Source: an uncultured Anaerolineales bacterium | GTDB taxonomy: Bacteria > Chloroflexota > Anaerolineae > B4-G1 > SLSP01 | Direction of reading: 5' to 3' | NCBI GenBank assembly: GCA_964468735.1 | Contig: CAYXVS010000003.1 | Coordinates: forward strand, 1-35,249 | DNA: 35,249 nt | In this document: positions 9,120-31,505 of the stretch, one piece after another | How the letters are laid out: every line of letters starts with the position of its first letter | Position numbering within the stretch: position 1 is the first letter of the stretch | Program-made: the position numbers and the translations under genes | The notes under the pieces: generated by a model | What the model was told of the DNA's origin: nothing | Databases searched by the model: none | Seen by the model: only the letters and a program-made list of their open reading frames with translations

Positions 9120-9127
9120 CTCCACAA

Positions 9128-9221: not shown

Positions 9222-9267
9222 TGAGATGACTTTACGTAATACGAACAAGGAATACTGAGGTGTTTGT

Positions 9268-11004: not shown

Positions 11005-11016
11005 AGGAAAGAAAAT

Positions 11017-12249: not shown

Positions 12250-12288
12250 TATCCAGTCCAATCCTCGTGAACCAAGGAGCTACCCAAG

Positions 12289-12693: not shown

Positions 12694-12775
12694 AGAGCAG
12701 ATCACTGGCGGGCTGAATCTGGGGAGACACACCTTTTGAGCCGGAGAACAACTAATATCTGGAGGAGAGAAAAAA

Positions 12776-13165: not shown

Positions 13166-13193
13166 TTCCAGCCTTCATAGGGTTGACGCTCGA

Positions 13194-13226
13194 CGGCCCC
13201 ATCCAAGACGGATGGGGCCGTTTTTA
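13194..13226 (+). terminator. Rho-independent terminator
   Basis: The stem pairs cggccccatcc (13194..13204) with ggatggggccg (13210..13220) around a 5-nt loop, followed by TTTTT (13221..13225). Confidence 0.75.
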
Positions 13227-13313
13227 GTTTCTGTTGGGCAACATGAGGTGAGAATCGCAACAAGGCTATGGAAACTGACAGTTTGCCTCCAGTCCAATCA
13301 GGACACAGGGCCT

Positions 13314-14249
13314 TCACATCAAACGGTCGTACAGCACCTCGAGGTTGATCGTGGGACAGACCGTGGCATCGCACTCTAAGGTCTGCGCGGCGGCCGCCAT
13401 GCCCAAACGGACAGCCTCGCCCGGCGAGACATCCTCCAGCAGGCCGAAGGCCACCGCCGCCGTCAACGCATCGCCCACGCCGGTGGCGTCCACCACATCG
13501 ACGGGGAACGCCGGCACGCGCCCGTTTTCCTCGGTGGTGGCATAGTACAATCCCTCGGCGCCCAGCGTGATGACGGCCAAATCGACGCCTAATTGCACCA
13601 ACCGCTGCGCCCCTTGGGCAATCGCCTCGTCGTTATCCAGGGTCTCGCCCAAGAGCGCCTCGGCCTCCAGCTTATCGGGCGTGAGCACGGTGATCTCCGG
13701 GAGGTAGGGGTGCAGGCGATGGGTCAACAGCGCCGCCGTGGGATCCACGCAGACCGGCGCCTCGTAGGTTCGGGTGAGCCGGAAGAGGGTGCGCAGGGCA
13801 TTGGCGGAGAGGTTCGCATCGATGCAGACCATATCCGCTGATTTGACCAATCCTCGGCGCTGATAGAGATAGCCCGGCGTGATCTGCCGGATGATCTCCA
13901 TGTCGTCAAAGCCGAGCCAGAATTCACCGTCCAGATGGTGCAGGCGGACATAAGAGCTGGTCGATTGATCCGGCACGACCAACACCTCGTCGGTGTTGAT
14001 CTGCAAGTGCTTGAGATTCTCCAGCAGGCGCTCGCCCCATTCGTCATCGCCCACGGCGGTGATGAACTGGACGTCGGCGCCCAGCCGCGCCATATTCTCC
14101 GCGATGTTGCGCGCCACGCCGCCCCACTCGCATCGAATCCGCCCCGGATTTGAGCGCCCCGGTTCCAAAGCAGGGGAGAGCGGCCAGACCTTCATATCTA
14201 ATCCGGCCGCGCCAATGACCAGCACCTGATGTTCGCTGCCATTCATCAT
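13314..14249 (-). CDS. PfkB-family kinase, pseudouridine kinase (YeiC/PsuK)-like
   Basis: The N-terminus is VLVIGAAGLDM. SNPGRIRCEWGGVARNIAENMARLGADVQFITAVGDD closely resembles E. coli YeiC (SNPGKIKFTPGGVGRNIAQNLALLG). The PfkB signature 2 is VVDATGVGDALTAAV. The ATG overlaps the stop of the upstream ORF (ATGA at 14249..14246). Confidence 0.75.
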   Translation of the reverse strand: MMNGSEHQVLVIGAAGLDMKVWPLSPALEPGRSNPGRIRCEWGGVARNIAENMARLGADVQFITAVGDDEWGERLLENLKHLQINTDEVLVVPDQSTSSYVRLHHLDGEFWLGFDDMEIIRQITPGYLYQRRGLVKSADMVCIDANLSANALRTLFRLTRTYEAPVCVDPTAALLTHRLHPYLPEITVLTPDKLEAEALLGETLDNDEAIAQGAQRLVQLGVDLAVITLGAEGLYYATTEENGRVPAFPVDVVDATGVGDALTAAVAFGLLEDVSPGEAVRLGMAAAAQTLECDATVCPTINLEVLYDRLM

Positions 14250-15202
14250 ACATCCTCCTGTTGCTCTCTGATAAGGGCCTGGGGGATGCCCACGAATCCC
14301 TCCGGCCGCCTGCGCGGACGAAAGACCACCCGCCCATCGGATCTCCGGGTAAAAGGTTGTTCCTCGCTCAAGCTAACCCCCTCGGCGGGCGACGCCTGCG
14401 ACGTCACTTGAAGCAAGAGGATATCCTCGGCCCGACTTTCGGGCAATAAATAGCCATCCGAGGGGATCTTAAGCGCGAGATAGTGCATCCCCGGATGGAG
14501 TTGCAAAAAAGAGAGCGGACCAATGTCTAAGGGGATCAACGTCGGCGGTAGATGGCGCCTGAGCACCTCGCCGGGCAGTGTGAGGTGAAAGGGGTAAATG
14601 GGATACGCGCCGGTCAGGACGACGACTTGGTTGATCAGTTCGTATAGCGGCGCGATGACGGTGAATTCATCCACGGGCAACTGCGATAACAGCGAGGTCA
14701 GGCTGGACATCCAACGCGCTACGGCCTGGCACGCCTGCACGCGGTCGGATCGATGTTGGAACCCCCAGAAGCGCTCGTTTTCCGCCAGGAGCGTGTGGGT
14801 CTGCGCGAAGGTCTGGCGCACTTTTTCTTCGAAGCGGAGGACGTAGTGGATGACGCCCTCGAAGTAGACGATCATCGCCTCGTTGTAGCGCGCGACCTGC
14901 GTCACCGAAAGCTCTATCGAATTCAAGGCCCAGCCGATCTGCTCGAGAGCCTCTTCCGGGCGCTGGAGACGCCACAGCACATCCGCCTGCAACGCCCGCG
15001 CCAGTGCGGCCGCCTCGCGCTGATGGGCCTGCCACGCGGTGGAGAAGATGCGCTCGGCGATAGCTAGCGCCTCCTCTAATCGCCCCTCTGCGACTGCGCG
15101 CCGCACATCTGTTTCCAGCGGATCGCGAAAATCCGCCGGGATGTCCTCCAGCGCCAACAGCGTCGATAACGTCAGCGCTTCAGGGAGACAGACAAAACGC
15201 AT
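14246..15202 (-). CDS. Hypothetical protein (318 aa): helical N-terminal half, beta-rich C-terminal half, no recognised catalytic motif
   Basis: This is a long ORF with coding-like composition. The start is moved to ATG 15202 (MRFVCLPEAL...) because the track's 11-codon extension is encoded by the family C repeat motif. The C-terminal segment HYLALKIPSDGYLLPESRAEDILLLQV...DGRVVFRP...GFVGIPQALI loosely resembles an S24/LexA-type beta-domain but lacks the Ser/Lys dyad. That resemblance is weak. Confidence 0.6.
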   Translation of the reverse strand: MRFVCLPEALTLSTLLALEDIPADFRDPLETDVRRAVAEGRLEEALAIAERIFSTAWQAHQREAAALARALQADVLWRLQRPEEALEQIGWALNSIELSVTQVARYNEAMIVYFEGVIHYVLRFEEKVRQTFAQTHTLLAENERFWGFQHRSDRVQACQAVARWMSSLTSLLSQLPVDEFTVIAPLYELINQVVVLTGAYPIYPFHLTLPGEVLRRHLPPTLIPLDIGPLSFLQLHPGMHYLALKIPSDGYLLPESRAEDILLLQVTSQASPAEGVSLSEEQPFTRRSDGRVVFRPRRRPEGFVGIPQALIREQQEDV

Positions 15203-15205
15203 AAG

Positions 15206-15420
15206 CCGTTCCAAGAAGATAAACCTCCCAAACACGACCTATTCTCTGGGGGTATCCATTTAGTTTCATGAGCAACCCAAGGTGCAACGCACTTGAACCA
15301 AAAGAAAAGTAACTCCTCATGCGTATATGCCTGGTGATAGGTCTAAAAGTGCGTTGCACCTCACAAGACTAAACGGTTGCCTCTGGGGAAAAGTATTGAG
15401 CTTGGGAGGTTTTAAATTTT
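15206..15420 (+). repeat. Composite nested palindromic element: family C outer arms enclosing family A copy 2
   Basis: The outer arms aaacctcccaa (15221..15231) and ttgggaggttt (15402..15412) are reverse complements. The inner family A core spans 15256..15381, with stem 15280..15294 pairing 15347..15361 (15/15) and a 52-nt loop. The orientation is antisense to both flanking minus-strand genes. Confidence 0.8.
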
Positions 15421-15436
15421 CAATCTCCATGACCTC

Positions 15437-16753
15437 TCAGGATGACGAGGGAAGCGCCCGTTGATCTTCAGACGCTTGCTCCTCAGAAGAAATTGGAGAA
15501 AGAACACTTACTCGCTCCTGCCCATATAAGTCGGTAATGATCTTTTTAAGGAAATTCGCCTGTTCAAACATCACACGGCGCACCGATGGATCCTGATCCG
15601 CCATCGATTGCAGCACGCTCAAAAATCGCAACAGGACCAATTGGGAAGTTTCCTCATCATCCTCTTGGTGTAGCTTTTGGATACCCGGCATCATCCCGGT
15701 GACCAATTCCACCTGCATCTGAACGCGGGCCTGATCAACCAGATGTTTCTGGACAACCTCACCTTCAGTAAGTTGCTGGGCCGCGAAATTCTGCCACTCG
15801 CTTTGCCAAGCTTCCAGCCATTGACGGGAAACAGCCTCTTCATCGGGCTGGATGGGCCCAAGTTGCACCTGCTCCACGATGATGCCCATCCCTTCGCCGC
15901 TCTTGCGCACAGCCTCAAAGATTTCCACCTCTAGTTGAGCAACAGGCGGCATAGCATCTTCGGACGAGGCTAAAAATTCATCCAAGTTGTATGTTTCCAA
16001 GCGATTGCGAATGGCGCTATCTAAGGAACCGCCGGAGATGCGGCCCGTCCAATCTTGAATCACCCCGCCGGCCTTACGACGCTTGATCGTCGCCGCTGTG
16101 ACGACCGCTTGCTCGTCAAAGGGATATGGCACATCTGAGGTTGGCTCTTGACCACCGTCATCGATACGAAAGCGGACACTGGCTTCACAGGAGATGGGGA
16201 TGCCATCGCGCGTCATCATCCCCACACTGACGGTTCGGCGCTGTGGACGCAGGTCGACCACATCCCACACCTTTTCAAAGGGGTCCAAGGTGTGAAAGCC
16301 CGGTCCCCAAACACGATACAGCTTCCCCAAGCGCGAGGTCACCACCGCCGAATCATGGCCCACGCTAAGGAAGCCGGGGCCACCGACTTTGCGCATCGTC
16401 GCCGGGCCATCGGGTGTAGCACGTCCCTTTTCCGCACGCCAGATGGGGTGAAGGGGTTTGCGCAAAGGAAGGCCAAACAGCACCAGGCGAACAAATTCCT
16501 CCGCATCCTTCTCCGACAGATCATAGAGTTGACGCAGGATTTGAATAAACAAGGTTCGCACATGCCAAACGCCAAACGCCAAGCTGGCCATAAAGCCCGC
16601 TATCGCTAACGGGAATTGCATCCGGCGCTCCAGAAGCATCTCCCGCAGCAAATGAGGCGCTACGACCAGAACCAGCGCCGCCATCACAATAGGAACGATG
16701 AGAATGATCAACCCAAAGAGAGAGAATGTCATGCGGCCTTTCTGCTCTGTCAT
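15437..16753 (-). CDS. SPFH/band-7 (stomatin-like) domain membrane protein, 2 N-terminal TM helices
   Basis: AVVTSRLGKLYRVWGPGFHTLDPFEKVWDVVDLRPQRRTVSVGMMTRDGIPISCEASVRFRIDD aligns well with the stomatin core (RLGR..GPG..PF.EK...VDLR.Q...V...T.D.VPV....V.FRV.D). The later segment is IRNRLETYNLDEFL...GIIVEQVQLGPIQP. AAGGAGG lies 7 nt upstream. The gene starts only 25 nt downstream of the preceding SPFH gene. Confidence 0.75.
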   Translation of the reverse strand: MTEQKGRMTFSLFGLIILIVPIVMAALVLVVAPHLLREMLLERRMQFPLAIAGFMASLAFGVWHVRTLFIQILRQLYDLSEKDAEEFVRLVLFGLPLRKPLHPIWRAEKGRATPDGPATMRKVGGPGFLSVGHDSAVVTSRLGKLYRVWGPGFHTLDPFEKVWDVVDLRPQRRTVSVGMMTRDGIPISCEASVRFRIDDGGQEPTSDVPYPFDEQAVVTAATIKRRKAGGVIQDWTGRISGGSLDSAIRNRLETYNLDEFLASSEDAMPPVAQLEVEIFEAVRKSGEGMGIIVEQVQLGPIQPDEEAVSRQWLEAWQSEWQNFAAQQLTEGEVVQKHLVDQARVQMQVELVTGMMPGIQKLHQEDDEETSQLVLLRFLSVLQSMADQDPSVRRVMFEQANFLKKIITDLYGQERVSVLSPISSEEQASEDQRALPSSS

Positions 16754-16778
16754 ACGAATGCCTCCTTCACTCCTACTC

Positions 16779-18275
16779 TCAACCTCGCTGCCATTTTACA
16801 ATTTGCCTATGCGCTTGTTCTATCGTCATCGTCACCGATTCCGGAAGCAACGCTTTGACATCCGGCGACCGCGCAATATGATCCAATGACTCGAGGAGCC
16901 GTACCGTCACCAAGGTACGAGCTTCTTTCGGGCTGAGGTCATTGAATTTCTTGGACTCTTCAAACAGGCCTTGCGTCAATTCCATCAGCATTTGCCCCCG
17001 CACACGTCCAAATTGTTTCTGGCGTTGAGCCAAGATTTTGCCGTTCTTTTTCATCATCTCACTGATCCACTGAGCCTTCCAGGCCTCGATGCGCTGCTTC
17101 ACAACGGTCTCATCCACCGGGATGATTTTGTTGCCCACGCCGCCGCCATCGATGCGGATGCCTTTCGGCTCGATCTCCTCTTTCACACGCTGCTTAACCT
17201 CCCCGCCAATCGCGCCGCGCGGCAATTGCTCGCCCATCGCGTACAGATCGTCCAAGCTATATCGCGCCACCACCTGTTTGACGTGATGCTTCGCGACGGT
17301 CAGCGGGAGATCTTCCCACGGCAGCGCCTGATGGGCGTCCAACGGGGTCTTGCCCTCCGGATTGACCTCAGCGGCGAAGACGGCCTTATAGGCCGCACTG
17401 CTTCGATAGGGCCACGTTTGCCCCAACTCCGGGACTCTCTCACCGGGATTAATGCGGAAAATCGAAGCGATCGGCAAGTTGACTTTGATGCCGTCGCGCG
17501 TCAGCGCCTCGACACGCTCCGCTCGGAGCTGCTGCCGGAGATCGACGACCGAATGCACTTGTTCCATTGCACTGGTCACGATGGTTCCTGGTCCAAAGAC
17601 GCCCCGGAACTTGGCGGAGTCCTTGATCGCTGCCGCGTTGTGGGGTTCTGTGATGACCAAGCCCGGCCCGCTGCCGTGAAATGGGTTCCCTTTGATCCGG
17701 GTCTTGGGTTCTCCATTAACGACGACAATCGAAGGCTTGGGGTAGGTCGTGAAAAATCCAGCGAAATATGCCAAGGCTTTCTTGCGATACCCTTCCATAT
17801 CCGGCGGGAAAGGGAATAATTCCGGCGCCCAGAAAAAGATCGCCAAGACCGTCAAAATGGGAGGGATGAGTAAGCTGGTGATAAAGAGTAAGATCAACAA
17901 CCAAGAGGCGTCGGAAAGTAAAAGTAAGGGCGCAAATAACAAGGATAAAAGTCCACAAGTGCCGACTAATCCCCACGCTACCCAGGCCGGGGTCACGCCT
18001 GTCCACCAGGCGAAGATCAGGAAGATGGTCAAAGGGAGACACGTAGAGACAACTAAGATGCCTACCCATCCTAAGATCGAAGGGCGAAGGATGCCGCCCC
18101 ACAAGATCCCCATCAGTGGCAGGAGCAATGGCCCACCCAGGTGCCACAGTAGCCAGAGGGCACGCGTCTCAGGTTGCACATACTCTTGGCTCACCTCCAG
18201 AGGATGTTTTTGTAGATATTCTTGTAGATAAAAGAATAACCCCAGGTAAATTAGCAAGATGATAAAATATAGCAT
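16779..18275 (-). CDS. SPFH/band-7-like domain membrane protein, polytopic N-terminus (about 5-6 TM helices); paralog of 15437..16753
   Basis: GPGLVITEPHNAAAIKDSAKFRGVFGPGTIVTSAMEQVHSVVDLRQQLRAERVEALTRDGIKVNLPIASIFRINPG parallels the SPFH core of the neighbouring gene. The later segment is VARYSLDDLYAM...GIRIDGGGVGNKIIPVDE...RIEAWKAQW. AAGGAGGA lies directly upstream of the ATG. Confidence 0.7.
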   Translation of the reverse strand: MLYFIILLIYLGLFFYLQEYLQKHPLEVSQEYVQPETRALWLLWHLGGPLLLPLMGILWGGILRPSILGWVGILVVSTCLPLTIFLIFAWWTGVTPAWVAWGLVGTCGLLSLLFAPLLLLSDASWLLILLFITSLLIPPILTVLAIFFWAPELFPFPPDMEGYRKKALAYFAGFFTTYPKPSIVVVNGEPKTRIKGNPFHGSGPGLVITEPHNAAAIKDSAKFRGVFGPGTIVTSAMEQVHSVVDLRQQLRAERVEALTRDGIKVNLPIASIFRINPGERVPELGQTWPYRSSAAYKAVFAAEVNPEGKTPLDAHQALPWEDLPLTVAKHHVKQVVARYSLDDLYAMGEQLPRGAIGGEVKQRVKEEIEPKGIRIDGGGVGNKIIPVDETVVKQRIEAWKAQWISEMMKKNGKILAQRQKQFGRVRGQMLMELTQGLFEESKKFNDLSPKEARTLVTVRLLESLDHIARSPDVKALLPESVTMTIEQAHRQIVKWQRG

Positions 18276-18354
18276 AGCATCCTCCTTGCACAGATTAGTA
18301 TCATCGAATCATTGAGGCCAATGGAGTACAAAACCGACTTATCTTTAACTTAGG

Positions 18355-18489
18355 CCGTTCCAAGAAAATAAACCTCCCAAAAACGAGTGGTTTTCTGCCT
18401 GTGGCCCTCCTTGGCCCTAAGGCCCAATGGCCGAGGGAAGGCCCCATGGCCGTGGGAGGGAAAAGTATCAGGTTTGGGAGATTTTAAAT
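18355..18489. repeat. Family C palindromic element with a different GC-rich core
   Basis: The left arm is ccgttccaagaaaataaacctcccaaaaacga (18355..18385). The right arm is gggaaaagtatcaggtttgggagattttaaat (18458..18489). Both match the outer arms at 15206.. and 15386.., but the interior is an unrelated ggcc-rich segment. Confidence 0.7.
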
Positions 18490-18574
18490 CCTGAAACTAC
18501 CTTAGCACAATACTTTTACTTAACTTTAGCACGAAACTACAAAAAAGGGAAATCCCGAACATACCAAGGCCAAC

Positions 18575-18627
18575 CTTATAAAATCAAAGGACGTGGAGAA
18601 GCTCAACGTTATAGCTTCTCCACGTCC
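18575..18627 (-). terminator. Strong rho-independent terminator after the 2502-aa gene
   Basis: A perfect 15-bp stem pairs ggacgtggagaagct (18589..18603) with agcttctccacgtcc (18613..18627) around a 9-nt loop. On the minus strand it is followed by TTTGATTTTATAAG. It lies about 20 nt past the stop codon at 18648. Confidence 0.8.
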
Positions 18628-18647
18628 CATCTCTCGCCGGAAACGGA

Positions 18648-21600
18648 TCAGTATTGCTTGAGAATCACGGGGAGATAGACCTCCGTGCCGCCGGGAAGTG
18701 CGTCGCGATCCACGGCTCGATTGTTTTCCTCGTTCCAGTCCTTGACAATCAACTCCGTGGTATAGCCAATGTCCACCCGATTGATGATCTCGCGGTGCGT
18801 CGACGGAATCGATTCCGCCAACTGGATGGCGAAGGTCACCCACCCGGATGCGCCGACATCCAGCGTGCCATCATTATCAGAAAGTCGGAAAACATACTGC
18901 CCATCCGCCACCCGGAGCCAGCGACCACTCATCCCTATGAGGGTCTGCGCGGAACCGCCATCGAAATTCACATATTCGCTGGGCGCGATGGTCTCCGTCA
19001 AGACAACATTGGAGACTGGCAACTCAGAGCTGGTGTGATTGGTGTAGGCGATGGTGTAAACCAATCGCTGCCCCGGCTCGACATCGGCGACGCCATCGTC
19101 TTTGCTCACCTGCACATCGATGCGAGGGGCCGGCGATTTGATGACGTCCACGCAGGCCATCTCCTGGCCTTGTGCGTCCGATGGCAATTGAATGGTGTTG
19201 CAATACTCGCCGGCTGCCAGGAAGGGATCGGTGGTCACGCGGAAGGTGACGGCGTACTCACCTGCGACGGGAAGGTCGATGCCGTCCCAGATGATGAGCT
19301 GGCGGTCGCCGGACTGCGTCACCTCCGCCGGCGCGATGCTGGCGCTCGCAAAGGTGAAGTCCGACGGAAGCGTGTCGGTGATCCGCACGCCGTTGATCGG
19401 GGCCGCGCTGTCGTTAAAGAGTCTGAGGGTGTAAGTAACGGCCCCCCCGGCCTCAACTTTCGTGGGTTTCACGTTCTTGCTCATTGAAAGGCCGCCACGC
19501 CGGACGCCGTCCACGTCACTATCGGCGTTGTTATCACGCTCGATCTCCAAGCTATCCGCGCCATCGTCCAATCTATAACCAATCTCAATGTGGTTCTCTA
19601 ACACCTCGATGTCGTCGGGGATGCTATCCGCCAGTGTAACCTGGAAGAATAACTCGCCTGACTGACCCGGTTGTAGCCCCGACGCAGGCTTCAATTCCAG
19701 CTTATAGACGCCGCCGCTGCCACTCCAATTACTGCTCTGGATCACGTCCGGCTGCATAAAGGTATCGGTGAGGATAATCGTATCGATGGGAGCATCTGAT
19801 TCGACCGCGTTGGTGTAGCGGATCGTGTAGTTCAAGGTGTCGCCGCCCGCGACCCAATCAACGCCATCGTTCTTGCTCACCTGCACATCCATCATAGGCA
19901 GCGCGGAGACATAGACGCGGCCTCCCAACGGCGTGACGGGAGATTGCAACTCGCCGTCCTGTTCGATTTGGACGGTGTTGGTGTAGTAGCCGGTCTGAGC
20001 GTAGCGATCGATGGTGGCGTTAAAGACCCATTCACGGGACTCCTCCGGCGCCATTGTAAATTCATTCGATGTAACCTGTTGTTGTCCCTCCGATGTGATG
20101 CCCGCCGGCAACGTGTCAATAACACGCACATCATGACTTTGATCGTTGCTGGTATTGTAGAGCGTGACGGTATAGATCAGGTCATCGCCGGCCTGGGGCC
20201 ATTGCGGAGAAGCGTCCTTCGTCACAAGCACTTTATCTCCTTCCCCAAGGATGATCGTCTCATCCACCGCCGAGTTATTTTCAACATTGGTCTCTCTCAC
20301 CCGCTCGGTTGTCGTGTAATCGATCTCCACGCGATTGAGTACGATAGTTTCCTCAGGGAGATCATCCGCAAGTCGCACCACGAAGGTCAGCTCGCCACTC
20401 GCCATCGCTGCTGGATCTTCAATGACATAGCGATACTGCCGGCCTCCAATCTGCGTCCAGTCCGAACTCAATACCTCCGCGACTTCCGGCGGCACCGTCT
20501 CCACCAGGGTCAAGGAGGAGAAGACCGGCTCATCAGATTCGGCTCTGTACTGGATAGTATAGGTGAGAATTTGCCCCGCCCCAACCCAGGTCATGTCATC
20601 GCTCTTGGTCACCTGCACATCCACGTTTGGCGGAGGTAAGACCTCTAAGCAGGCCAGGCCCTCGACCGGCGGTTGAACGATCGGCTCGCTGCCATCACGG
20701 GGATCGCGCAACACTTGGACAGCATTACACAGCGTGCCCGACTCGGCCCAAGGATCGACCCGCGCACGGAAGCGGAGTTGGGCTGAGTAATCCGCGAACA
20801 TGCGGTAAGACGACCACACCACCTTTTCATGCCCTGCCTCCGTCATTGTTATCGGACTAAGACCATACAAATCCTCGACGAAGGTGACGGAAATTGGCAA
20901 CGTGTCGGTGATCCAAAGATAGTACCCTTGAGCGTCATTGTTGATCAAAGTGACGGTATAGGTGACGAAATCACCGGGCCGCACGGCCATCGGCTCGACC
21001 TCCTTGCCGATCTGGATGCCGACCACGCCGCTGAGCACATCCGTATCAGGATCGTCGAAGTTGTTATTGTTCGAAAGGTCGACATCTATCGCCTCCTCAT
21101 CCGTGGTGAAGCCGACCTCAACGCGGTTGACAATCGCATCCACCGCCGGGATCGTCGGATGCACGCGCACCGGGAAGGCTACCGATCCGCCCTCGCCGGG
21201 TTCCAACACGCCCGTGATGACTTTCCGATATTTACCTTGCTCCAGCCGCTCCCATGTCAGATCGGGCGGGTCCAACTCATCCGGCCCGAGGACATAATTG
21301 CGCGGCTCGAAGGTATCGGTGATGATGATGCTTTCCACCTTGTAACCGGGCTTGTATTCTAATTGCTCCGGCTCAGCGTTCGTATAGGAAATGGTGTAGG
21401 TCAGCCATTGACCGGGCACCACCGTGGTGATGCCGTCCGTCTTGCCGATTTGCACGTCTAACTTTTGCAGGCCCTCGACCTGGACCTCGGCCAAGTTGGC
21501 GTGGTCGGGAAGCGCTCGTCCGGCCATATCCTCCACATAGACGCGATTGAACGCCGGACCGGTAGGGGCAATCTTCAAGACGCGCGCCTGGAATTGCAGC

Positions 21601-24600: not shown

Positions 24601-26156
24601 ACCGGCTCACCAATCATCTGGGTCTCCGGCTCAGCCTCTTTTGAGAGGAGAATCTCGGGCGCGATTTCCAAGATCGCCATTTCGTTATCATCGTGACCGG
24701 GATACACCTTGGGCAGCTCATCGGACAGAGCATCCAGCCCATTGGGATATTTAAGCCCTCGACACGTAGATGGCGTCACCGTCGGTGGGGTCGTCGCCGT
24801 CACTTGGAAGGTCATACTAATCAAACCATTCGCCGGCACCGACAGGTCCTCCCAAACAACGTAATTCCCCCCATTGAGATTCGGGTCTGGGCCAGCAAGC
24901 ATCCCAGAAAAGACAAAGGTCTTATAAAGGGTATCGGTAATCGTCAAGCTACTGTTTAGCTCTCGAGGAACGTAGGAGGGATTATGACGCGGATTGTAAA
25001 ACGTCAATGTGTATGTCACCGGCTGGCCGGGGTAAGCTGTGGTTTCCCCCTCTGGATCTGACGCGGTTGTGACGACCTTATCAAAAGGACTGAGAATTTT
25101 CAAGTCCGCATCCGATGTCGGATGTGCCATCACACGGTCATCCCACACGGTCACAAATTCCTCTCGATTCTCCAGGTCTATCCCACCTTCGTAAGCTGTA
25201 TCTTGTGGTAACCGCGCGGTGAAGGTCATATAAGCACCGGCCCCTGGCTGGAGCACATAGGTAGAGGGGAGTGTCCAGGTGATGTATCCACTGTCCACAT
25301 AGTTCACGGAGGAGACGTCGGAGGTCACGGTCAGTACTGATGTGCTCAATTCGTCGGGTAATTTTTCTACGACGTAAAGGTTCGAGGCCGGCCATGCATC
25401 TGGTCGCTCTTCCGTACTTAGATTTTTGACGTGAATTGTGTACGTCACCAAACGTCCAACGCGACACTCATCCCTCGGCGCTGGCACATCCTCGCCTTCA
25501 CCCCAATGCTCGATCTCCAGCAATGGGCCAACGACCATCGAACTGGCCAGGGGCGCCTGCGCGTCGCTGTAGCCCGCCAACTCCCCCACGACCGAATTCT
25601 CCACACTGGAGGGGCCTATTTCCTTTCCCCAAGGCTCATGCCCTTTCAGAGCAGGTTGCACCGTGATCGGCACCCGCGCGAGCAATTCGATTTCCACCAC
25701 CTCGCCTGGATCCATATCACTCAACCACCATGTCGCCTCGCCCCGGTGATTTTCGGTGTTAATGGTGTGCGTGAAATCCTCTACCGCACTGGGGGGATTG
25801 ACGATATAGCTATCATATTTCAACAAGATGCCATGCTCCCACCAGTTATCGGCATTGGGCATCTTCGTCGTCCACGAGTCATCCAATGTCACGCCACTTA
25901 GCGTGTCCTCCGTTGAAGTATTCGTCACCACGATGGTGAAGGTGACAATCTCGCCGGCAAAGGCCACATCCGGCGAGGTCTGCCCCACCTCCAGCGGGGT
26001 GGCCGCCGGCGCCGCGACCTCCCGGGGCAAGATAGCACCTTGCACCGGCCCCGTCAGCGCCGTCATCAGACCCCACAATCCAATCATCGCGCCCAGAACA
26101 GCCAATCCGATGCCATACGTCCTGCGCCTCATCTTCTTGCTCTCCCTAGTCTCCAT
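18648..26156 (-). CDS. Giant secreted/cell-surface protein (2502 aa) built of DUF11 (TIGR01451-type conserved repeat) and CARDB-like beta-sandwich repeats
   Basis: The signal-peptide-like N-terminus is KKMRRRTYGIGLAVLGAMIGLWGLMTALTGPVQGA. There are more than 15 occurrences of the DUF11 signature G-x-x-(V/L)-T-Y-T-(I/L)-x-(V/L)-x-N, for example GEIVTFTIVVTNTS, GRLVTYTIHVKNLS, GEPVTYTIRVENIG and GERLTYTLTFQNQT. The start is set at ATG 26156 (METRESKK...), which has GAAGGAGA 7 nt upstream. The 25-codon track extension is encoded by repeat family A. Confidence 0.85.
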   Translation of the reverse strand: METRESKKMRRRTYGIGLAVLGAMIGLWGLMTALTGPVQGAILPREVAAPAATPLEVGQTSPDVAFAGEIVTFTIVVTNTSTEDTLSGVTLDDSWTTKMPNADNWWEHGILLKYDSYIVNPPSAVEDFTHTINTENHRGEATWWLSDMDPGEVVEIELLARVPITVQPALKGHEPWGKEIGPSSVENSVVGELAGYSDAQAPLASSMVVGPLLEIEHWGEGEDVPAPRDECRVGRLVTYTIHVKNLSTEERPDAWPASNLYVVEKLPDELSTSVLTVTSDVSSVNYVDSGYITWTLPSTYVLQPGAGAYMTFTARLPQDTAYEGGIDLENREEFVTVWDDRVMAHPTSDADLKILSPFDKVVTTASDPEGETTAYPGQPVTYTLTFYNPRHNPSYVPRELNSSLTITDTLYKTFVFSGMLAGPDPNLNGGNYVVWEDLSVPANGLISMTFQVTATTPPTVTPSTCRGLKYPNGLDALSDELPKVYPGHDDNEMAILEIAPEILLSKEAEPETQMIGEPVTYTIRVENIGPRDIAGPLVLTDTLPLDKLTGRFFSFIKMVTPTTGLDPLPGADRIVVWNLPGVASGEYYTFAFQAEVNGIPGKKYQNEMSAYSGETIMCDFKGARVTADTPFRINKYAETTSVVLGDLITYTARIRNVSSKDVYTVTGYEDALNQDVLPFKNFYIKWTDRADGDDLYEHGPIATPLDPGDTFSHTFTVSATGSGLHTDWCNAMGPEGEGAFQGPGTVQFFVEDQGTRTNMPELAWVYVYPHVSLLQEFYPNPVAINEQVVLTLTMRDNRTEPIQPVSGITLAWTIPYGQKSDKRFTLLSTSVPTATPPGDAEPGVVYWDDLTIPLRGERIITARLQAIDEEDNFRSEVQALSVDDPSICIPAAVYEVDREGGGTQRVRYHYQGEVVKGIEIQKEPDVEEVAPYNEVLYVLQVENQTGAVVHNVVITDVLPEKWSYVDVVGDTPEPDTFLPSWTLDEIGPEESVDLSFKARSGPQLGLQHNWVDAEAPINWGLSEKYTDNVEVFVVSGIGFYKDVTPREVYTDSLVTYTLNLYNGADYRLSNIVITDVLPSGFEYQGIVSGQPPEVVPDSDPQMLVWRVSGNLNGGDTLQFVFTAKTGADLYTAKYYNNAMIEALNDSTGTPVDISDTGPTAPVYVFGKPNVNVSKSADPNTVIAGERLTYTLTFQNQTFDAYDLIVTDTLPVSFTLATPYPSGVHTEWQDGHQLVIWDALPIDPRAELQVPLPVQVDRLAYEGSYPNTVQVQMGDVRLPERDGLARVWVTELPRLDAEVSHSDDSFWVNEGETLDYTIYYTNSSPAPSDETYTSTFQAVILTTTLEPAGSVNLISDDWEEVGSGQYVHTIESPMTAGETGVMSFTVSVANNVPDEELGIRSQVEIGYVVDANTADATPKNNVSVDFDLLLGRDPISVTKQADPTNVKAGRLVTYTIGLGLSDNIQDPYTVQVVDRLPPDFVFANAIDPTNVSTRTYGSPPFEQEEVVWSAIRLEPGVTRTLQFQARVLKIAPTGPAFNRVYVEDMAGRALPDHANLAEVQVEGLQKLDVQIGKTDGITTVVPGQWLTYTISYTNAEPEQLEYKPGYKVESIIITDTFEPRNYVLGPDELDPPDLTWERLEQGKYRKVITGVLEPGEGGSVAFPVRVHPTIPAVDAIVNRVEVGFTTDEEAIDVDLSNNNNFDDPDTDVLSGVVGIQIGKEVEPMAVRPGDFVTYTVTLINNDAQGYYLWITDTLPISVTFVEDLYGLSPITMTEAGHEKVVWSSYRMFADYSAQLRFRARVDPWAESGTLCNAVQVLRDPRDGSEPIVQPPVEGLACLEVLPPPNVDVQVTKSDDMTWVGAGQILTYTIQYRAESDEPVFSSLTLVETVPPEVAEVLSSDWTQIGGRQYRYVIEDPAAMASGELTFVVRLADDLPEETIVLNRVEIDYTTTERVRETNVENNSAVDETIILGEGDKVLVTKDASPQWPQAGDDLIYTVTLYNTSNDQSHDVRVIDTLPAGITSEGQQQVTSNEFTMAPEESREWVFNATIDRYAQTGYYTNTVQIEQDGELQSPVTPLGGRVYVSALPMMDVQVSKNDGVDWVAGGDTLNYTIRYTNAVESDAPIDTIILTDTFMQPDVIQSSNWSGSGGVYKLELKPASGLQPGQSGELFFQVTLADSIPDDIEVLENHIEIGYRLDDGADSLEIERDNNADSDVDGVRRGGLSMSKNVKPTKVEAGGAVTYTLRLFNDSAAPINGVRITDTLPSDFTFASASIAPAEVTQSGDRQLIIWDGIDLPVAGEYAVTFRVTTDPFLAAGEYCNTIQLPSDAQGQEMACVDVIKSPAPRIDVQVSKDDGVADVEPGQRLVYTIAYTNHTSSELPVSNVVLTETIAPSEYVNFDGGSAQTLIGMSGRWLRVADGQYVFRLSDNDGTLDVGASGWVTFAIQLAESIPSTHREIINRVDIGYTTELIVKDWNEENNRAVDRDALPGGTEVYLPVILKQY

Positions 26157-26201
26157 TGCTCGTCTCCTTCTGTTTATGACTGTATGTGAGATAAATTTCC
26201 A

Positions 26202-26325
26202 GTAACCATTTAGTCTTGAGGTGCAACGCACTTTTGGGTTTATGACCAGATATTACTGCATGAGGCGTTGCTTTTCCTTCGGTTTAAGTGCGTTGCACCT
26301 TTGTCTGCTCATAGAACTAAAACAG
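26202..26325 (-). repeat. Long-hairpin palindromic element, family A copy 3 (15-bp perfect stem, 52-nt loop)
   Basis: The stem 26219..26233 (aggtgcaacgcactt) pairs with 26286..26300 (aagtgcgttgcacct). The flanks match the reverse complement of copy 2. It lies between the two giant genes, sense to them, in the 5' leader of the 2502-aa gene. Confidence 0.8.
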
Positions 26326-26342
26326 ATACCATTTCCAAACCA

Positions 26343-29300
26343 TCAGCTTTGCCGCACTATGACCGGTAAATAGATCATCCTCTCCGTCTGGCCCTCGATC
26401 AAAATCGGCGTCGTCGTCACGTTATTATCCTCGATGGCCTCTCGAATTAATCCGAAAGGCTTGCCCCATGGGGGTTGACCATATTCAGAGGTATCCACCT
26501 GGGCGTAGATGGCGTATTCGCCCTCAACAGGCGCCGACGCAGATTCACACGAGACGACCACCGACTCTCCTGCCGCCACCGGAGGCGCCAAGACATTACA
26601 ATACTCCTCCTCGTGATCAAACACGCTGCTGGGCGGCGTGGGCATCGCCGTTGACGCAAATGACTTGAGATAGACGCGCACCTCAAACAGATCCGTGTCC
26701 GTCTGACCCGTCCACAATTGGTCGGCGTCCAAATCCCCCTGATTCGCCACGGTCACATAGACGCGGGGCGGATCATCCTCCAGTAGATGGGTAGGCGTCA
26801 CTGCCATTTGGGTGATCACCAAATCCGGCCCGTGGACAGGATCACTATCCGTCGCCCGGTTGTTCTGGGGATTCGATTCCACCACATCCTCATCCGTCCG
26901 GTAGCCGATCTCCACGGTATTGCTGAGGACAAAGACCTCGTCATCGGGAATCGCGGTCGTCAGCGCGGCGCTCACACTCAACTCACCGCTCTCCATGGGA
27001 TCCAACGTGCCGACAGCGTAGGTGTAGCGACCGCCGCCTATCGGCGTCCACCCGGCGGCGTCCACCTCCACGGCGGAGGCCGGCGCTATCGTGTCGGTGA
27101 GCACCACATCCCGCAGCGTGATGCCATCGTCGGTGTCATTGGTGTAGCGCACGGTATAGATCACCTCCTGACCCGGCGTGATCCACGTTTCCCCGTCGTC
27201 CTTGGTCACCTGCGCATCGACGCGCGGCAATCCTGTCACGGAGACGGGCGCCAAGTTCGGATGATCGAAGTAAAAGCCGCCCACCAGCGTCTCCAGGCGA
27301 TTGTAATGCTTGCCGCTTGGCGTCATGCGCTCCGAGTGGACGCGGAAGGCCATCGTGATGGTCTCCTGCGGCTCGATATGGAGGCTTGGCCACACCAAGC
27401 GCGTCGGATGCCCAGAGAGCACATTGGGCGTCGCACCTGCCACGTGCGCATCGTAGGTGAAGTAATGGGGCAATGTGTCGGTGAGGGCGATGGTCTGCGC
27501 CGTATCCATCTCATTGAAGAGCGAGAGGGTATACGTGACCCTCTCCCCCGCTGTGATGCGCGACGGATGAGCGGTCTTTCTCACCATAACGGTGGGAATG
27601 CCCGCCACGTACACCGGCGCAGCATTCGCTATATCAGAGATGTCAACCAATTCTCCTGTATCTTGATCCTCGGCATAGACGGAGACGTGCGGGTTGTAAT
27701 AATCGCCGGACACCAACTCTTCACCCGTCCGCACACGGAACACAATCTGCAACCGATCATTTTTCTCCAATGGATCAGCAACCAGCCACTTGACCTGCTG
27801 CCCCTGCACCGCGATCTCCGGTGGGCCTTCAACAGTCTCCAAGAAGGTGAAGCCGCCGGGCAATGTCTCGGTTAACAAGATATTTGAAAGGATCTTATCG
27901 TTCGTGCCATTGAAGAGATTGATAGTATAAGTTACAACCTCGCCAGCCTTCACCTCCTCCGGTGAGACATCTTTAAAGAAGCCCACGCCGGGCGCTACGA
28001 AGACGCCGACGGTCTCGGTGTATTTCTTGTCCACCATCCAATGAATGGGGGCGGTGCATTCAACACCATTCCGCCACGTGCCAAGATCCGTATAGGCACG
28101 CGCCCGAAAGACGATCTCGACGATCGTCTCGGGCGGCAGTTCATCCCAAACCCACTGCAGAGGATCCTCACTGTAAGGCTCTGGCCCTGAGACCCAGTCC
28201 AGATATAGCCAATTGTCCGGCAGGATATCGATGACGACCACATCACGGACGGTTGCGCCGGTGGTGTTTTCAACCTCCATCAGGTATTCCACTTCGCCGT
28301 ACGGGCCAATTCTTTCGACATCCGGCTCCTTGTTGATCAACACGCCGGGCACTACATCCAGGGTCTTGCCATCGACTTTCTCCGCTGACGGCACGCAGAT
28401 AGCCGGATCATCGATCTCGGTGACGCGGGTCTTACTCTTGTAGCTCTGCTTGCGATCATCATCGGAGGCGAGCAGCGGCGCGCGCAACGTGAGCACCAAC
28501 TCCGTCGTCCCGCCGGCCGGCAACGTCAAATCGCTCCAATAATAAAGGTCGGAATCCTGAGACGAGGTCGGCAGCGAGGAAGCGACCAGCGTGAAGTCAC
28601 CTGGATTGGCGTTCGGCAATTCCCACTCCAACGTCATCCCCGTGATATCCGTCGTGGGCGCTGTGCGATTATCCTGTAGCGTAATCGTCAGCGTCACCAA
28701 CTCTCCCACCGCTACGGGATTGGGCGTCGCCGATTGGAGAATCGAGACGTGCGGGATGACGACAACGCTCGAATCTCGCAACTTATCCGCGTTTGTCCGC
28801 CACATCTCAGGCTCGCGCACATCGAAGAGAACGGTCGCCATGTCCTGCATCAAATCCTTCCCCTTGCCGCGATCCTCACACCAATCCGAGCCAAGCCCCG
28901 TGTCCTCCGGCAGACCGGTCGTGCGCACCTCAAACGTGTGATCCCAGGTCTCCCCCGGCGGCAACGACGCGGGCGGCGAGACGGTGTAGTTGTACTCATA
29001 ATCATCATCCGCCGGATCTGAGAAGAGAACGGAGGACAGATCATCGCGGAAGGCGGTCACGGTGTAAAGCGTCCGCGGCGAGATATTGAGGATATGAGCC
29101 TCGTATGATAGCAGTTCACCCTGGACAACCTCGCTTTGGAGTGCGGTCTTATTGATGCGAAACGGCGTATCGACCTCTACCCTCGTCTTATTGTCGTCAA
29201 TGATGGGGCAGATTCCCGTCTCCGCATTGTACGCCAACACATCATTGTAATATTTCACGTGAGCCACCCCGTCAACGACGGCCTGGAAGATCAATATATG

Positions 29301-31079
29301 CGACGCCCCCACATCCAGGCCGGGGAGGTTATCCCAGACGACGACGGCGCCATCGGAAAGCACCTGGGTCGGTAAGAAGGGGGCCGCCGTAGGCGCAACC
29401 ATCTCCTGGAAGGAGAAATAACGCCCGAACATCTCATCCATCGGCAAGACGTCCGTCAACACAATCGGGTCGGGGATGTATCGCTCTCCGACATTCTCCA
29501 AAGTGATGGTATAGGTCACCACCTCACCGGGAAGCTGCAAACTCGGCTCCACCCGTTTAGTAAGATCGATCTCCTTCTCGACGTCCAGCACCGCCATTTC
29601 ATTGTCATCGTGACCGATATAGGTGCCAAACCCAGGGATCACGGCCGTCGCCGTGACGCTGTTGGGGTAGGAATTAACGCAACCCGTCCACCCGGCGGAG
29701 GGCAAGGCCTGCGAAGGCACATCGACGCGATAGGACATCGTGATGGCTCCATTCGCTGCGACCTCCATATTGTCCCAGCGCAGATAAGAGCCTTCGATGA
29801 CATCCGGCGTCGAGCCAAGGAGCATCTCGGAGAACATGAACGTATTGTGAAGCCCATCTACCAATCGTAAGGCGTCGGCAAGAACGATATCGTGGTCGTG
29901 CAGCGGATTATAAAATGTGAGCGTATAGGTCACAGGACGGTTAGCATAGGTCGTCGCTGGCTGGTCAAGCGGGGGGCCGGTGGTGACGATCTTATCAAAG
30001 GGGCTGAGGATCCGCGTTCGTAACCTATCATTAGCGTTAGCCGGTCGCATCGGCATCCCGTCGGCCCAGGCCAACAACGACTCTTTGTCGTTCTCAAGAT
30101 ATTGCTTTCTTGGATTATAGTCTGTATCAGGTGGCACACGCGCGATGAACGTAACGGTGGTCGTCGCGCCCGGCGCCAAGTCGTTGGGCAACGTCCACGA
30201 GAGCACGCCCAGCGCGGGATCATACGCCGTGATCACCCCCGTCTGATCGGCCGTCACCTCGATCACCCTATCTTGAATTTGCTCCGGCAACGTCTCCTGC
30301 ACCACGAGATTACTGGCCCGGAAGACATCCGGGCGCTCCTCGCCATCCTCCTCCGTGACATTCTGAATCCGCACGGTGTAGGTCACCAGCCGCCCCACGC
30401 GGCAATGATCCTCCGGGGCGACCTCACCCTCCGCCATCTTGTCGATGCTCAACAATGGCCCAATCACCATCGCGCTGACGACCGGGGCCTCGACGTTCTC
30501 CTCGCCCGGAGCGGAGGCCACCACCGAGTTGGCGATGTTGCTGGGGCCGATGTCGTCCCACGGCTCGTGGGCTTTCAACGCCGGCTGCAACGTGATCGGC
30601 GCCGTGACGGAGAAGACAATCTCCACACTTTCTCCGGCGGCTAATGGATAAAGCGACCACGTCGCCTCGCCTCGGCGATCCAGCAACTCGATGGTCTGCG
30701 TGAACGCCTCGATGGCATTCGCGGGCGTCGCGACATAGCCGTTGAAATTCGCCAAAATACCGCGATCCCACCATTTATCTTTATTGGGATCAGCCTGTGG
30801 CGCGTTCGTCGTCCACGTATCGAACAACTCAATGCCGTTCACGGTTTCACCTGACGTGTTAGTCAACGCGATGGTGTAGGTCAGCACCTCACCTGCGAAC
30901 GCTGACGCCGTTCCCTTCTGTGACACCACGAATGAAGCTTGAGGCGCATTCGGCGCCGCCGCACTCTGCGTGGGCGAGATCAACGCCAATAACAACCCAC
31001 CTAACAACCCTGTGCCCCCGATGATCACCAGGGAGAGCACCACACGTCTAACCCAAATCGATTGACCTTCTGTAGTCAT
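26343..31079 (-). CDS. Giant secreted/cell-surface protein (1578 aa), DUF11-repeat protein with a C-terminal CARDB-like domain; paralog of 18648..26156
   Basis: The signal-peptide-like N-terminus is VRRVVLSLVIIGGTGLLGGLLLALISPTQSAAAP. DUF11 signatures include GEVLTYTIALTNTS, GRLVTYTVRIQNVT, NRPVTYTLTFYNPL, GEVVTYTITLENVG and GERVTYTLSLFNEM. The CARDB-like end is GPDLVITQMAVTP...RVYVTVANQGDLDA...IEDNN. AAAGGAG lies 8 nt upstream of the ATG. Confidence 0.85.
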   Translation of the reverse strand: MTTEGQSIWVRRVVLSLVIIGGTGLLGGLLLALISPTQSAAAPNAPQASFVVSQKGTASAFAGEVLTYTIALTNTSGETVNGIELFDTWTTNAPQADPNKDKWWDRGILANFNGYVATPANAIEAFTQTIELLDRRGEATWSLYPLAAGESVEIVFSVTAPITLQPALKAHEPWDDIGPSNIANSVVASAPGEENVEAPVVSAMVIGPLLSIDKMAEGEVAPEDHCRVGRLVTYTVRIQNVTEEDGEERPDVFRASNLVVQETLPEQIQDRVIEVTADQTGVITAYDPALGVLSWTLPNDLAPGATTTVTFIARVPPDTDYNPRKQYLENDKESLLAWADGMPMRPANANDRLRTRILSPFDKIVTTGPPLDQPATTYANRPVTYTLTFYNPLHDHDIVLADALRLVDGLHNTFMFSEMLLGSTPDVIEGSYLRWDNMEVAANGAITMSYRVDVPSQALPSAGWTGCVNSYPNSVTATAVIPGFGTYIGHDDNEMAVLDVEKEIDLTKRVEPSLQLPGEVVTYTITLENVGERYIPDPIVLTDVLPMDEMFGRYFSFQEMVAPTAAPFLPTQVLSDGAVVVWDNLPGLDVGASHILIFQAVVDGVAHVKYYNDVLAYNAETGICPIIDDNKTRVEVDTPFRINKTALQSEVVQGELLSYEAHILNISPRTLYTVTAFRDDLSSVLFSDPADDDYEYNYTVSPPASLPPGETWDHTFEVRTTGLPEDTGLGSDWCEDRGKGKDLMQDMATVLFDVREPEMWRTNADKLRDSSVVVIPHVSILQSATPNPVAVGELVTLTITLQDNRTAPTTDITGMTLEWELPNANPGDFTLVASSLPTSSQDSDLYYWSDLTLPAGGTTELVLTLRAPLLASDDDRKQSYKSKTRVTEIDDPAICVPSAEKVDGKTLDVVPGVLINKEPDVERIGPYGEVEYLMEVENTTGATVRDVVVIDILPDNWLYLDWVSGPEPYSEDPLQWVWDELPPETIVEIVFRARAYTDLGTWRNGVECTAPIHWMVDKKYTETVGVFVAPGVGFFKDVSPEEVKAGEVVTYTINLFNGTNDKILSNILLTETLPGGFTFLETVEGPPEIAVQGQQVKWLVADPLEKNDRLQIVFRVRTGEELVSGDYYNPHVSVYAEDQDTGELVDISDIANAAPVYVAGIPTVMVRKTAHPSRITAGERVTYTLSLFNEMDTAQTIALTDTLPHYFTYDAHVAGATPNVLSGHPTRLVWPSLHIEPQETITMAFRVHSERMTPSGKHYNRLETLVGGFYFDHPNLAPVSVTGLPRVDAQVTKDDGETWITPGQEVIYTVRYTNDTDDGITLRDVVLTDTIAPASAVEVDAAGWTPIGGGRYTYAVGTLDPMESGELSVSAALTTAIPDDEVFVLSNTVEIGYRTDEDVVESNPQNNRATDSDPVHGPDLVITQMAVTPTHLLEDDPPRVYVTVANQGDLDADQLWTGQTDTDLFEVRVYLKSFASTAMPTPPSSVFDHEEEYCNVLAPPVAAGESVVVSCESASAPVEGEYAIYAQVDTSEYGQPPWGKPFGLIREAIEDNNVTTTPILIEGQTERMIYLPVIVRQS

Positions 31080-31268
31080 GCTTTTACTCCTTTGGATTGC
31101 GAACCACTTTTAACTCAACAAAACAACAAAGAGGATAAAAATCTTGTCACAGATGTTTATAAGGGTGAGTGACGTAGGTTGCGAGTTGGCCGAAAGTCTT
31201 GTGTGCCCTATTGATATGATGTGGTAGGATTATGAATTTTTTTTCTGAGGGTGCCGACAATTAATTAG

Positions 31269-31296
31269 ATTATAGACCTACCCAAAACCCTGTCAA
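31269..31296 (-). promoter_or_regulatory. Consensus sigma70-type promoter for the giant-gene pair (TTGACA - 16 nt - TATAAT)
   Basis: On the minus strand, TTGACA is at 31296..31291, the spacer is 16 nt, and TATAAT is at 31274..31269. This implies a leader of about 180 nt before ATG 31079. Confidence 0.6.
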
Positions 31297-31342: not shown

Positions 31343-31505
31343 GGCTCTCCAGGAATTCGCCGGGTGCAATCGCCAAGCGCTATTGCGCCCCCCCCCACCC
31401 ACAACTCATAACAACGCAGAAAAGGTCTGTGATCCCCACAAATGCGCACGTCTTCGCTGCTTTTAGGGCGGCTTAGGGAGTTGTCCGGCAAAATCCAACA
31501 GGCCC
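31343..31505 (+). repeat. Dispersed non-coding repeat, copy 2 (matches 675..698 and 900..985)
   Basis: See copy 1. The core is 76/86 nt identical. The 64-aa track ORF 31297..31491 lies on this repeat and is not credible as a gene. Confidence 0.7.

Follow-up and report, generated by a model that had tools for sequence, protein, structure and literature searches.

A conserved SPFH-SPFH-TPR operon of Anaerolineae beside two giant DUF11-repeat genes in an uncultured Anaerolineales genome

SPFH proteins are widespread in bacteria, and a client or partner is known for few families, namely FtsH for HflK/C and NfeD for the stomatins and flotillins. The DNA studied here, 35,249 nucleotides (nt) from an uncultured Anaerolineales bacterium of the Chloroflexota (GenBank assembly GCA_964468735.1, contig CAYXVS010000003.1, positions 1 to 35,249; hereafter the window), carries a pair of SPFH genes in a 17-kb minus-strand block, together with genes for two giant DUF11-repeat proteins, a 318-amino-acid (aa) protein and a kinase of the PfkB family. 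An earlier note on this DNA had read the block as a candidate cell-envelope module. Does it encode one machine, or do distinct units lie next to each other?

Here we present evidence that the two SPFH genes (SPFH-B and SPFH-A), the gene of the 318-aa protein (TPR-beta) and, in most genomes, the kinase gene form a conserved operon specific to Anaerolineae, which we have not found described. Comparison across loci establishes its gene content, order and operon-like spacing, its private upstream element and its independence from the giants. The block probably consists of two independent units side by side and not of one machine; the single-module interpretation is mostly refuted, and a functional link between the giants and the SPFH genes is improbable. 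We therefore drop the notion of a giant adhesin plus scaffold module and place the giants with the DUF11 surface filaments and with proteins carrying a YLP-box motif. The operon offers a clean and testable case of a different SPFH partner logic, in a phylum whose envelope is poorly understood.

The genes, promoter and terminator all lie on the minus strand where the earlier note had placed them. Listed in the direction of transcription, they are:

31269..31296, minus strand: consensus sigma-70 promoter, TTGACA-16-TATAAT, with 12/12 hexamer matches, about 190 nt upstream of giant1; putative in function
26343..31079, minus strand: giant1, 1578 aa, matching Pfam DUF11 and CARDB and TIGR01451
18648..26156 (open reading frame to 26231), minus strand: giant2, 2502 aa, with DUF11 matches and paralogous to giant1
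18575..18627, minus strand: intrinsic terminator closing the giant transcription unit, a stem with a U-rich tail
18523..18551, minus strand: promoter-like element TTCCCTTTTTTGTAGTTTCGTGCTAAAGT upstream of SPFH-B, a conserved motif with a putative promoter role
16779..18275, minus strand: SPFH-B, 498 aa, SPFH/Band-7 protein (Pfam Band_7, 42.5 bits)
15437..16753, minus strand: SPFH-A, 438 aa, SPFH/Band-7 protein (Pfam Band_7, 60.9 bits)
14246..15202, minus strand: TPR-beta, 318 aa, from TPR matches and an AlphaFold2 model
13314..14249, minus strand: PfkB-family sugar or nucleoside kinase (PfkB, 1.5e-49)

Conservation of the SPFH operon and its upstream element

The conservation of the operon was assessed in 79 loci (cited below by our own numbers, L001 onwards), which were collected by a pattern scan with the alignment of SPFH-A homologs over one genome per GTDB species and taken with flanks of up to 10 kb. 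Their titles name Anaerolineae, Anaerolineales, Thermoflexales/Thermoflexia or Chloroflexi(a)/Chloroflexota, apart from one uncultured bacterium. Likewise, every source name given for the 125 SPFH-A homologs is Anaerolineae, Anaerolineales or Chloroflexota. To determine gene content, all window proteins were used as tblastn queries, and the open reading frames (ORFs) of the loci were then searched by jackhmmer.

SPFH-B lies directly upstream of SPFH-A in 77 of the 79 loci, and a contig end cuts the other two. TPR-beta is found by jackhmmer directly downstream of SPFH-A in 65/79, plus two copies cut by contig ends, and PfkB follows the TPR gene in 55-57/79. The four genes are co-directional in all loci, with median spacings of -4 nt between SPFH-B and SPFH-A, +12 nt between SPFH-A and the TPR gene, and about -7 nt, as estimated from alignment starts, between the TPR gene and PfkB. 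Beyond these four, clustering of the roughly 1030 called genes reveals nothing conserved: the flanks differ by clade and comprise the his operon, Lon, a Mur ligase, T2SSF (tad-like), GH2/GH3 or PrmC/Sua5, Lon being divergent and close by in just one clade. The annotated families of neighbouring genes do not include FtsH, and no mobile-element or NTPase genes were seen adjoining the cassette. The same arrangement is met when the search starts from the third gene: around three ordinary TPR-beta representatives, the C-terminus of SPFH-A lies directly upstream in 3/3 and PfkB downstream in 2/3. Thus, of the module proposed for this block, the SPFH duo and the 318-aa protein stand as a conserved unit, which the kinase joins in most genomes, and the inclusion of the giants is not supported. 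A literature search found no paper describing an SPFH-SPFH-TPR operon.

There is a single cassette per locus except in L050 (5277-11029) and L071 (3362-10003), where two SPFH-B/SPFH-A pairs flank a PfkB gene, in tandem in the former and inverted in the latter. A TPR-beta gene was detected in neither.

Two signals separate this operon from the giants in the window. The terminator at 18575..18627 has a perfect 16-bp stem and a U-rich tail, with a folding free energy (dG) of -31.6 kcal/mol (z = -5.5) whose stability was reached by 0/200 shuffles, and it is conserved in L001-L003. The second signal came from a BLAST search of the gap between giant2 and SPFH-B, which returned short matches directly upstream of SPFH-B in distant species. 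When aligned, the regions upstream of SPFH-B share TTCCCTTTTTT-N~9-GTGCTAAAGT(G/T)A, which reads as a C/T tract followed by an extended -10 'TGCTAAAGT' and usually ends 10-70 nt ahead of the SPFH-B start codon. Searched as the regular expression TTCCCTTTTTT-N9-GTGCTAAAGT on both strands of about 1.5 Mb, the motif matches in 27/79 genome loci, in three metagenome loci (L085, L087, L088) and in the window at 18523..18551. All of these matches lie upstream of SPFH-B, and the same sequence contains zero matches elsewhere. The element is near-invariant among loci whose SPFH-A is just ~34-50% identical to that of the window. A second half-copy, GTGCTAAGGT, lies 24 nt downstream of the element in the window. 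A reading as a CIRCE/HrcA operator was rejected, as there is only a GTGCTAA half-site and no inverted partner.

In the window the element follows directly on the terminator of the giants, which would make the SPFH operon its own transcription unit. Such a private element, which we take as a putative promoter, is a strong argument that the SPFH operon is autonomous and under specific regulation. The block is probably made of one unit in which a sigma-70 promoter drives two paralogous giants, most likely surface fibrils or adhesins, up to a strong terminator, and of a second unit, an operon of the class Anaerolineae with its own promoter-like element, encoding SPFH-B, SPFH-A, TPR-beta and mostly PfkB.

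The giant proteins and their neighbourhood

What are the giants, and does their position next to the SPFH genes carry meaning? Both consist largely of DUF11 chains, with five stretches in giant1 (Pfam DUF11 1e-46, 158 bits) and ten in giant2 (5e-95, 314 bits); TIGR01451 scores 108 and 228 bits, respectively. Giant1 has in addition a CARDB domain near its C-terminus (6e-7), and giant2 an isopeptide-domain signature (TIGR04226, 69.2 bits against a cut-off of 30). With 41% identity across about 1490 aa the two are paralogs, and they share a conserved head of ~350 aa. The giant2 ORF spans 18648..26231, with a likely start at the ATG at 26156, preceded by the Shine-Dalgarno sequence AAGGAG, which gives 2502 aa. 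A hydropathy scan detects a hydrophobic N-terminal segment at residues 8-31 of giant1 and, in ORF numbering, 41-59 of giant2.

At the other end, giant1 closes with ...MIYLPVIVRQS (codons 26343-26375) and giant2 with ...VYLPVILKQY (18648-18680), of the common form YLPVI[VL][RK]Q[SY]. These tails recall the NCBIfam models NF050076 and NF053834, named 'YLP-box putative sorting motif', in which the sorting role is itself only putative. With 11.9 bits the giant1 tail passes NF053834 (cut-off 10), and with 13.4 bits it falls short of NF050076 (cut-off 15); the giant2 tail has zero match to either hidden Markov model, and its YLPVILKQY resembles the YLP-box by eye alone. Every intact giant ortholog ends in [YF][LM]P[LV][IV][LMV][RK]x(0-4). 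In the wider form [IVF][YF][LM]P[LV][IVT][LMV][RK]x(0-4)-COOH the tail is also found on unrelated large secreted proteins, among them an Ig-like family of ~1290 aa (cluster 26), the clearest case, L012:5550-8348 and L073:13291-16107. Altogether the tail occurs in the window and in L001-L005, L012-L015, L017, L019-L022, L026, L073 and L085-L103. A literature search on the YLP-box motif found no paper, and we know of no processing enzyme for it.

These features predict for each giant a membrane anchor or signal at the N-terminus and, at the extreme C-terminus, a YLP-box as putative sorting motif. The suggestion that they are secreted or surface proteins is thus borne out by the DUF11 chains, the N-terminal hydrophobic stretch and the YLP-box tail. 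The closest known relative is GhlA of the Chloroflexota species Litorilinea aerophila, whose 49 DUF11 domains form trimeric grappling-hook-like surface filaments (2026 study, PMC13319060). Like GhlA and GhpA of Aureispira (PMC13319060), the window giants have Ig-like DUF11 domains in tandem behind a hydrophobic N-terminal stretch, and GhlA is likewise a giant Chloroflexota protein. However, GhlA has 6596 aa and 49 domains, compared with 1578 and 2502 aa and 5 and 10 detected DUF11 stretches here, and the window giants are a tandem paralog pair with a conserved ~350-aa head. The likeness is one of domain make-up, not of sequence alignment. By this analogy the best reading of the giants is as smaller representatives of the GhlA-like DUF11 filament kind; like it, they most likely make up fibrillar appendages or adhesins on the cell surface.

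Their neighbourhood was tested from both sides. On the SPFH side, 61 loci were evaluable, each with at least 3 kb of DNA upstream of SPFH-B. A giant is present upstream in 8 of these, as well as in L002, which has a shorter flank, and 53/61 evaluable species have no giant nearby. Where present, the giant lies directly upstream of SPFH-B (the window, L001-5, L014, L020, L026) or is divergent (L019). On the giant side, metagenomes were scanned with aligned sequences of the ~350-aa head, which gave 19 loci. L085 repeats the order giant, SPFH-B, SPFH-A, TPR, PfkB; in L087 and L088 giant and cassette are divergent; no cassette lies near the giants of L092, L100 and L102; and L095 has tandem giants. 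In L091 and L094 (~9779-19935) a giant is followed by a small ORF, PfkB and a ResIII helicase, which is the order of L020 and L085 minus the SPFH-SPFH-TPR trio; the helicase is 68% identical to the one after PfkB in L020. The flanks of the other loci were too short to judge. Counted as arrangements, the 19 loci include one co-directional, one divergent and four that have enough flank and no adjacent SPFH pair. Since L091 and L094 keep the order minus the trio, the trio behaves as a discrete unit independent of giant and kinase. Taken together, the searches with the SPFH proteins and with the giant head found that the two are largely not co-conserved, which mostly refutes a single module that includes the giants.

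The small ORF of the L091/L094 type (L094:14654-15112) is Pro/Thr-rich and ends in ...MPRTGSG, a hydrophobic stretch and RRRR, with the look of an LPXTG-type sortase signal.

One set of observations nevertheless weighs against treating the two units as unconnected: YLP-box proteins of two unrelated families lie directly upstream of SPFH-B in ~14-15 species, a recurrence that pure coincidence does not obviously predict. The position of the giants is held by the cluster 26 family in L013, L017, L021 and L022 and by YLP-tailed fragments in L015 and L087/L088, and most of the ~16 YLP-tagged ORFs among the ~1030 called genes are at -1 or -2 to SPFH-B. Together with the loci in which a giant itself adjoins SPFH-B, this adjacency would fit a platform, formed by the SPFH pair and TPR-beta, through which the adjacent YLP-box giants are exported, sorted or anchored; the 17-kb block would then be one envelope module after all. 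We regard this as unlikely. Apart from the many species without a nearby giant, the terminator and the private promoter element part the giant unit from the SPFH unit, and giants occur without the adjacent trio (L091, L094) or without a nearby cassette (L092, L100, L102). No residue is invariant in the polytopic part of SPFH-B, which makes a sorting enzyme unlikely. Finally, the giant carriers are scattered over several branches of one half of the neighbour-joining SPFH-A tree, among giant-less loci, which fits an ancestral adjacency followed by losses. One ancestral arrangement and subsequent losses explain the recurrent giant and YLP adjacency, and inherited gene order is adequate.

A broader version, in which the SPFH-B/SPFH-A/TPR-beta cassette serves as a membrane platform for YLP-box proteins in general, assisting their insertion, C-terminal sorting or the anchoring of surface fibrils in the unusual envelope of Anaerolineae, is a long shot. 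If true, YLP-tagged proteins of two unrelated families would lie upstream of the element because the cassette handles such proteins. An ultrashort sorting signal that is so far an orphan would thereby gain its first cellular machinery, and a bacterial SPFH cage a concrete class of clients.

The SPFH pair, TPR-beta and the kinase

With the two units read as independent, the question becomes what the SPFH operon encodes. Both SPFH proteins match Band_7 (PF01145) above the Pfam cut-off of 23.6, at 60.9 bits for SPFH-A and 42.5 bits for SPFH-B, and Band_7 was matched in 41/41 SPFH-B orthologs scanned. Their genes are 25 nt apart in the window and their products 26% identical (E = 3e-19). A crude Kyte-Doolittle scan predicts two hydrophobic segments at the N-terminus of SPFH-A and about 5-6 at that of SPFH-B; the orthologs of both are also polytopic across the family. 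In SPFH-B all invariant columns are at position 155 or beyond, past the polytopic part. By sequence, the nearest solved relatives of SPFH-A are the archaeal stomatin PH1511 (1e-6) and QmcA (9e-5), at marginal E-values. SPFH-A scores 19.8 bits with the HflK model TIGR01933 (cut-off 159.4), and the HflK/HflC equivalog models do not match SPFH-B.

The third protein, which the earlier note called unknown, has a TPR domain in its N-terminal half, and the term still applies to its beta domain, which has no assigned fold. We take the ATG at 15202 as its start because orthologs begin MR[FLW][VI]; the GTG extension of the ORF upstream of it lies within a dispersed repeat. TPR_12 is matched in 30/47 TPR-beta orthologs, and the profile matches in the PDB are TPR proteins. 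Two word-index searches yielded just 6 and then 24 relatives, probably as TPR words crowded out the true relatives, and an exhaustive profile search yielded ~90 full-length representatives at 50% clustering. Modeled by AlphaFold2 from a 79-sequence alignment, the protein reaches a predicted local distance difference test score (pLDDT) of 87.7 and a predicted template modeling score of 0.85; from 24 sequences, the C-terminal domain stayed below 50 pLDDT. The model comprises seven TPR-type helices (~1-175) and a small beta domain (~180-312). As a hydropathy scan detects no hydrophobic or transmembrane segment, TPR-beta is predicted to be cytoplasmic.

Two assignments of the beta domain were tried and rejected, each in a weak test against single-sequence templates. 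An S24/LexA-like fold gave 0.8% in hhalign against UmuD, despite the expected motif being aligned, and an AbrB/MazE swapped-hairpin fold, considered for an 'IPxxxxxxxGxxxGD' pattern, gave 0.1% against AbrB and 0.3% against MazE. Pfam adenosine-deaminase (PF00962) matches, all weak, appear in 4/47 of the locus-derived TPR-beta orthologs, with a best E of 1.7e-4.

The absence of an NfeD partner, already stated in the earlier note, is upheld. Among 41 SPFH-B and 47 TPR-beta orthologs NfeD (PF01957) has no match at E <= 1, and 32 isolated beta domains have no Pfam match, nor NfeD at E <= 10. These searches also led us to reject an NfeD domain concealed in the N-terminus of SPFH-B or in TPR-beta.

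The known systems against which the operon can be set are of two kinds. With HflK/HflC (SPFH3), prohibitin 1/2 and flotillin 1/2 it shares tandem diverged SPFH paralogs that are probably co-translated and membrane-anchored and have long helical C-terminal regions. It differs from these in that its SPFH proteins are polytopic instead of having a single transmembrane segment and score far below the HflK equivalog cut-off, in having a dedicated TPR-beta partner, and in that FtsH is missing from the annotated neighbours. With stomatin/QmcA-NfeD and flotillin-NfeD2 (YuaG-YuaF, YqiK-YqiJ; PMC2636767) it shares a tight operon of SPFH gene(s) and one dedicated non-SPFH partner. In those operons, however, the partner is NfeD with three transmembrane segments and an OB-fold, whereas here it is a soluble protein of TPR and beta domains. 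Hinderhofer et al. 2009 (PMC2636767) reported conserved NfeD partners for SPFH1, SPFH2 and SPFH5, and none for subfamilies 6-12.

By analogy with HflK/HflC, prohibitin 1/2 and flotillin 1/2, we propose that the SPFH paralogs co-assemble as a hetero-oligomeric membrane cage or microdomain. Soluble TPR-beta would be the dedicated partner of the pair, in the operon slot that NfeD occupies in stomatin and flotillin operons, and may bring in clients, among them possibly the kinase co-translated with it.

Several points count against this picture. Neither of the two downstream genes is universal: a deep clade (L053, L055, L057, L058, L062) has PrmC and Sua5 after the TPR gene in place of PfkB, and L027, L043, L060 and L065 are without a TPR gene. 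In the window the SPFH-B leader is ~250 nt long with repeat insertions, compared with ~35 nt in most species, and the promoter role of the element is putative. The positive-inside rule is ambiguous for the membrane orientation of SPFH-A. For the beta domain, a PDB profile search gave nothing significant, and Foldseek with the full TPR-beta model against the PDB returned only TPR matches, none below E = 1e-3.

The kinase itself belongs to the general PfkB family (169 bits against a cut-off of 25.8, 1.5e-49) and has an intact catalytic GxGD-type motif. The earlier label of a PsuK-like kinase translationally coupled to the 318-aa protein is right as to the translational-type overlap, the window genes overlapping by ATGA; the PsuK part is not sustained, the pseudouridine-kinase model NF007355 giving 175.9 bits against a cut-off of 540. 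A second alternative places this kinase at the center: the cassette would localise or regulate PfkB at the membrane, with the kinase as output and the SPFH and TPR proteins as scaffold. In 42 of the 50 loci measured, the stop codon of the TPR gene and the estimated start of PfkB overlap, and PfkB is the best conserved of the four (50-69% identity in diverged loci versus 30-50% for SPFH-A). We give this reading a slim chance: the deep clade named above has the trio and no PfkB, PfkB itself is found in L091 and L094, where the trio is missing, and in L027, L043, L060 and L065, where the TPR gene is missing, and its high conservation equally fits a housekeeping kinase sharing the transcript.

Two metagenomic proteins, P0208 (601 aa) and P0226 (538 aa), from loci L081 and L080, carry an EAD7 domain (PF19960) N-terminal to a full TPR-beta module. 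EAD7-type domains are proposed effector recruiters in conflict systems of multicellular prokaryotes that depend on nucleoside triphosphates (NTP) (PMC7159879), and the fusions hint that the TPR-beta module may be pluggable into such NTP-dependent systems. That the cassette as a whole is a conflict or anti-phage system with TPR-beta as membrane sensor or effector is nonetheless very improbable: PADLOC has no matches at E <= 0.01 for PfkB, TPR-beta, SPFH-A or SPFH-B, the cassette is single at all loci save L050 and L071, with stable housekeeping flanks, a deeply conserved private promoter and no adjoining mobile-element or NTPase genes, and the EAD7 fusions are on contigs of 1.7-2.1 kb with no usable gene context.

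Dispersed repeats and other features of the window

The intergenic DNA of the block holds dispersed repeat families, in agreement with the repeat-filled gaps described before. Two copies of a hairpin repeat of ~105-130 nt lie within the block:

26217..26321, no strand assigned: dispersed hairpin repeat copy, ~105 nt, in the giant1-giant2 gap, with stems GGTGCAACGCACTT / AAGTGCGTTGCACC
15253..15382, no strand assigned: dispersed hairpin repeat copy between SPFH-A and the TPR gene, from repeat match and fold

A third copy is found at 3808-3938. The stems are exact 14-nt terminal inverted repeats, with 6 exact 14-mers versus 0.19 expected, and the repeat RNA folds with a dG of -46.6 (z = -4); the copy at 15253-15382 is without a U-tail. 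The close relatives L001 and L002 align to the two ends of the SPFH-A-TPR gap and not to the stretch that holds the repeat, and short matches to one arm of the hairpin occur in L003, L029 and L045. The repeat looks like a miniature inverted-repeat transposable element or a repetitive extragenic palindromic (REP-type) element inserted in intergenic gaps.

A further repeat of ~45 nt, TTTGGGAGGTTTATYTTCTTGGAACGGC, is present at 3704-3746 (+), 15202-15248 (-) and 18351-18397 (-), ahead of the ComEA-like, TPR and SPFH-B genes, and is the source of the spurious GTG extension of the TPR ORF. A 97-nt repeat occurs at 889-985 and 31409-31505, its copies 87% identical and 30 kb apart. Rfam and tRNA scans of the window found nothing. 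On the plus strand, the genes at 6522-11004 specify a membrane protein with a DUF2298 match (359 bits), a polytopic protein of 578 aa without a Pfam match and, after these, an M28 peptidase, a response regulator and a DUF7670 protein, possibly another envelope-related cluster.

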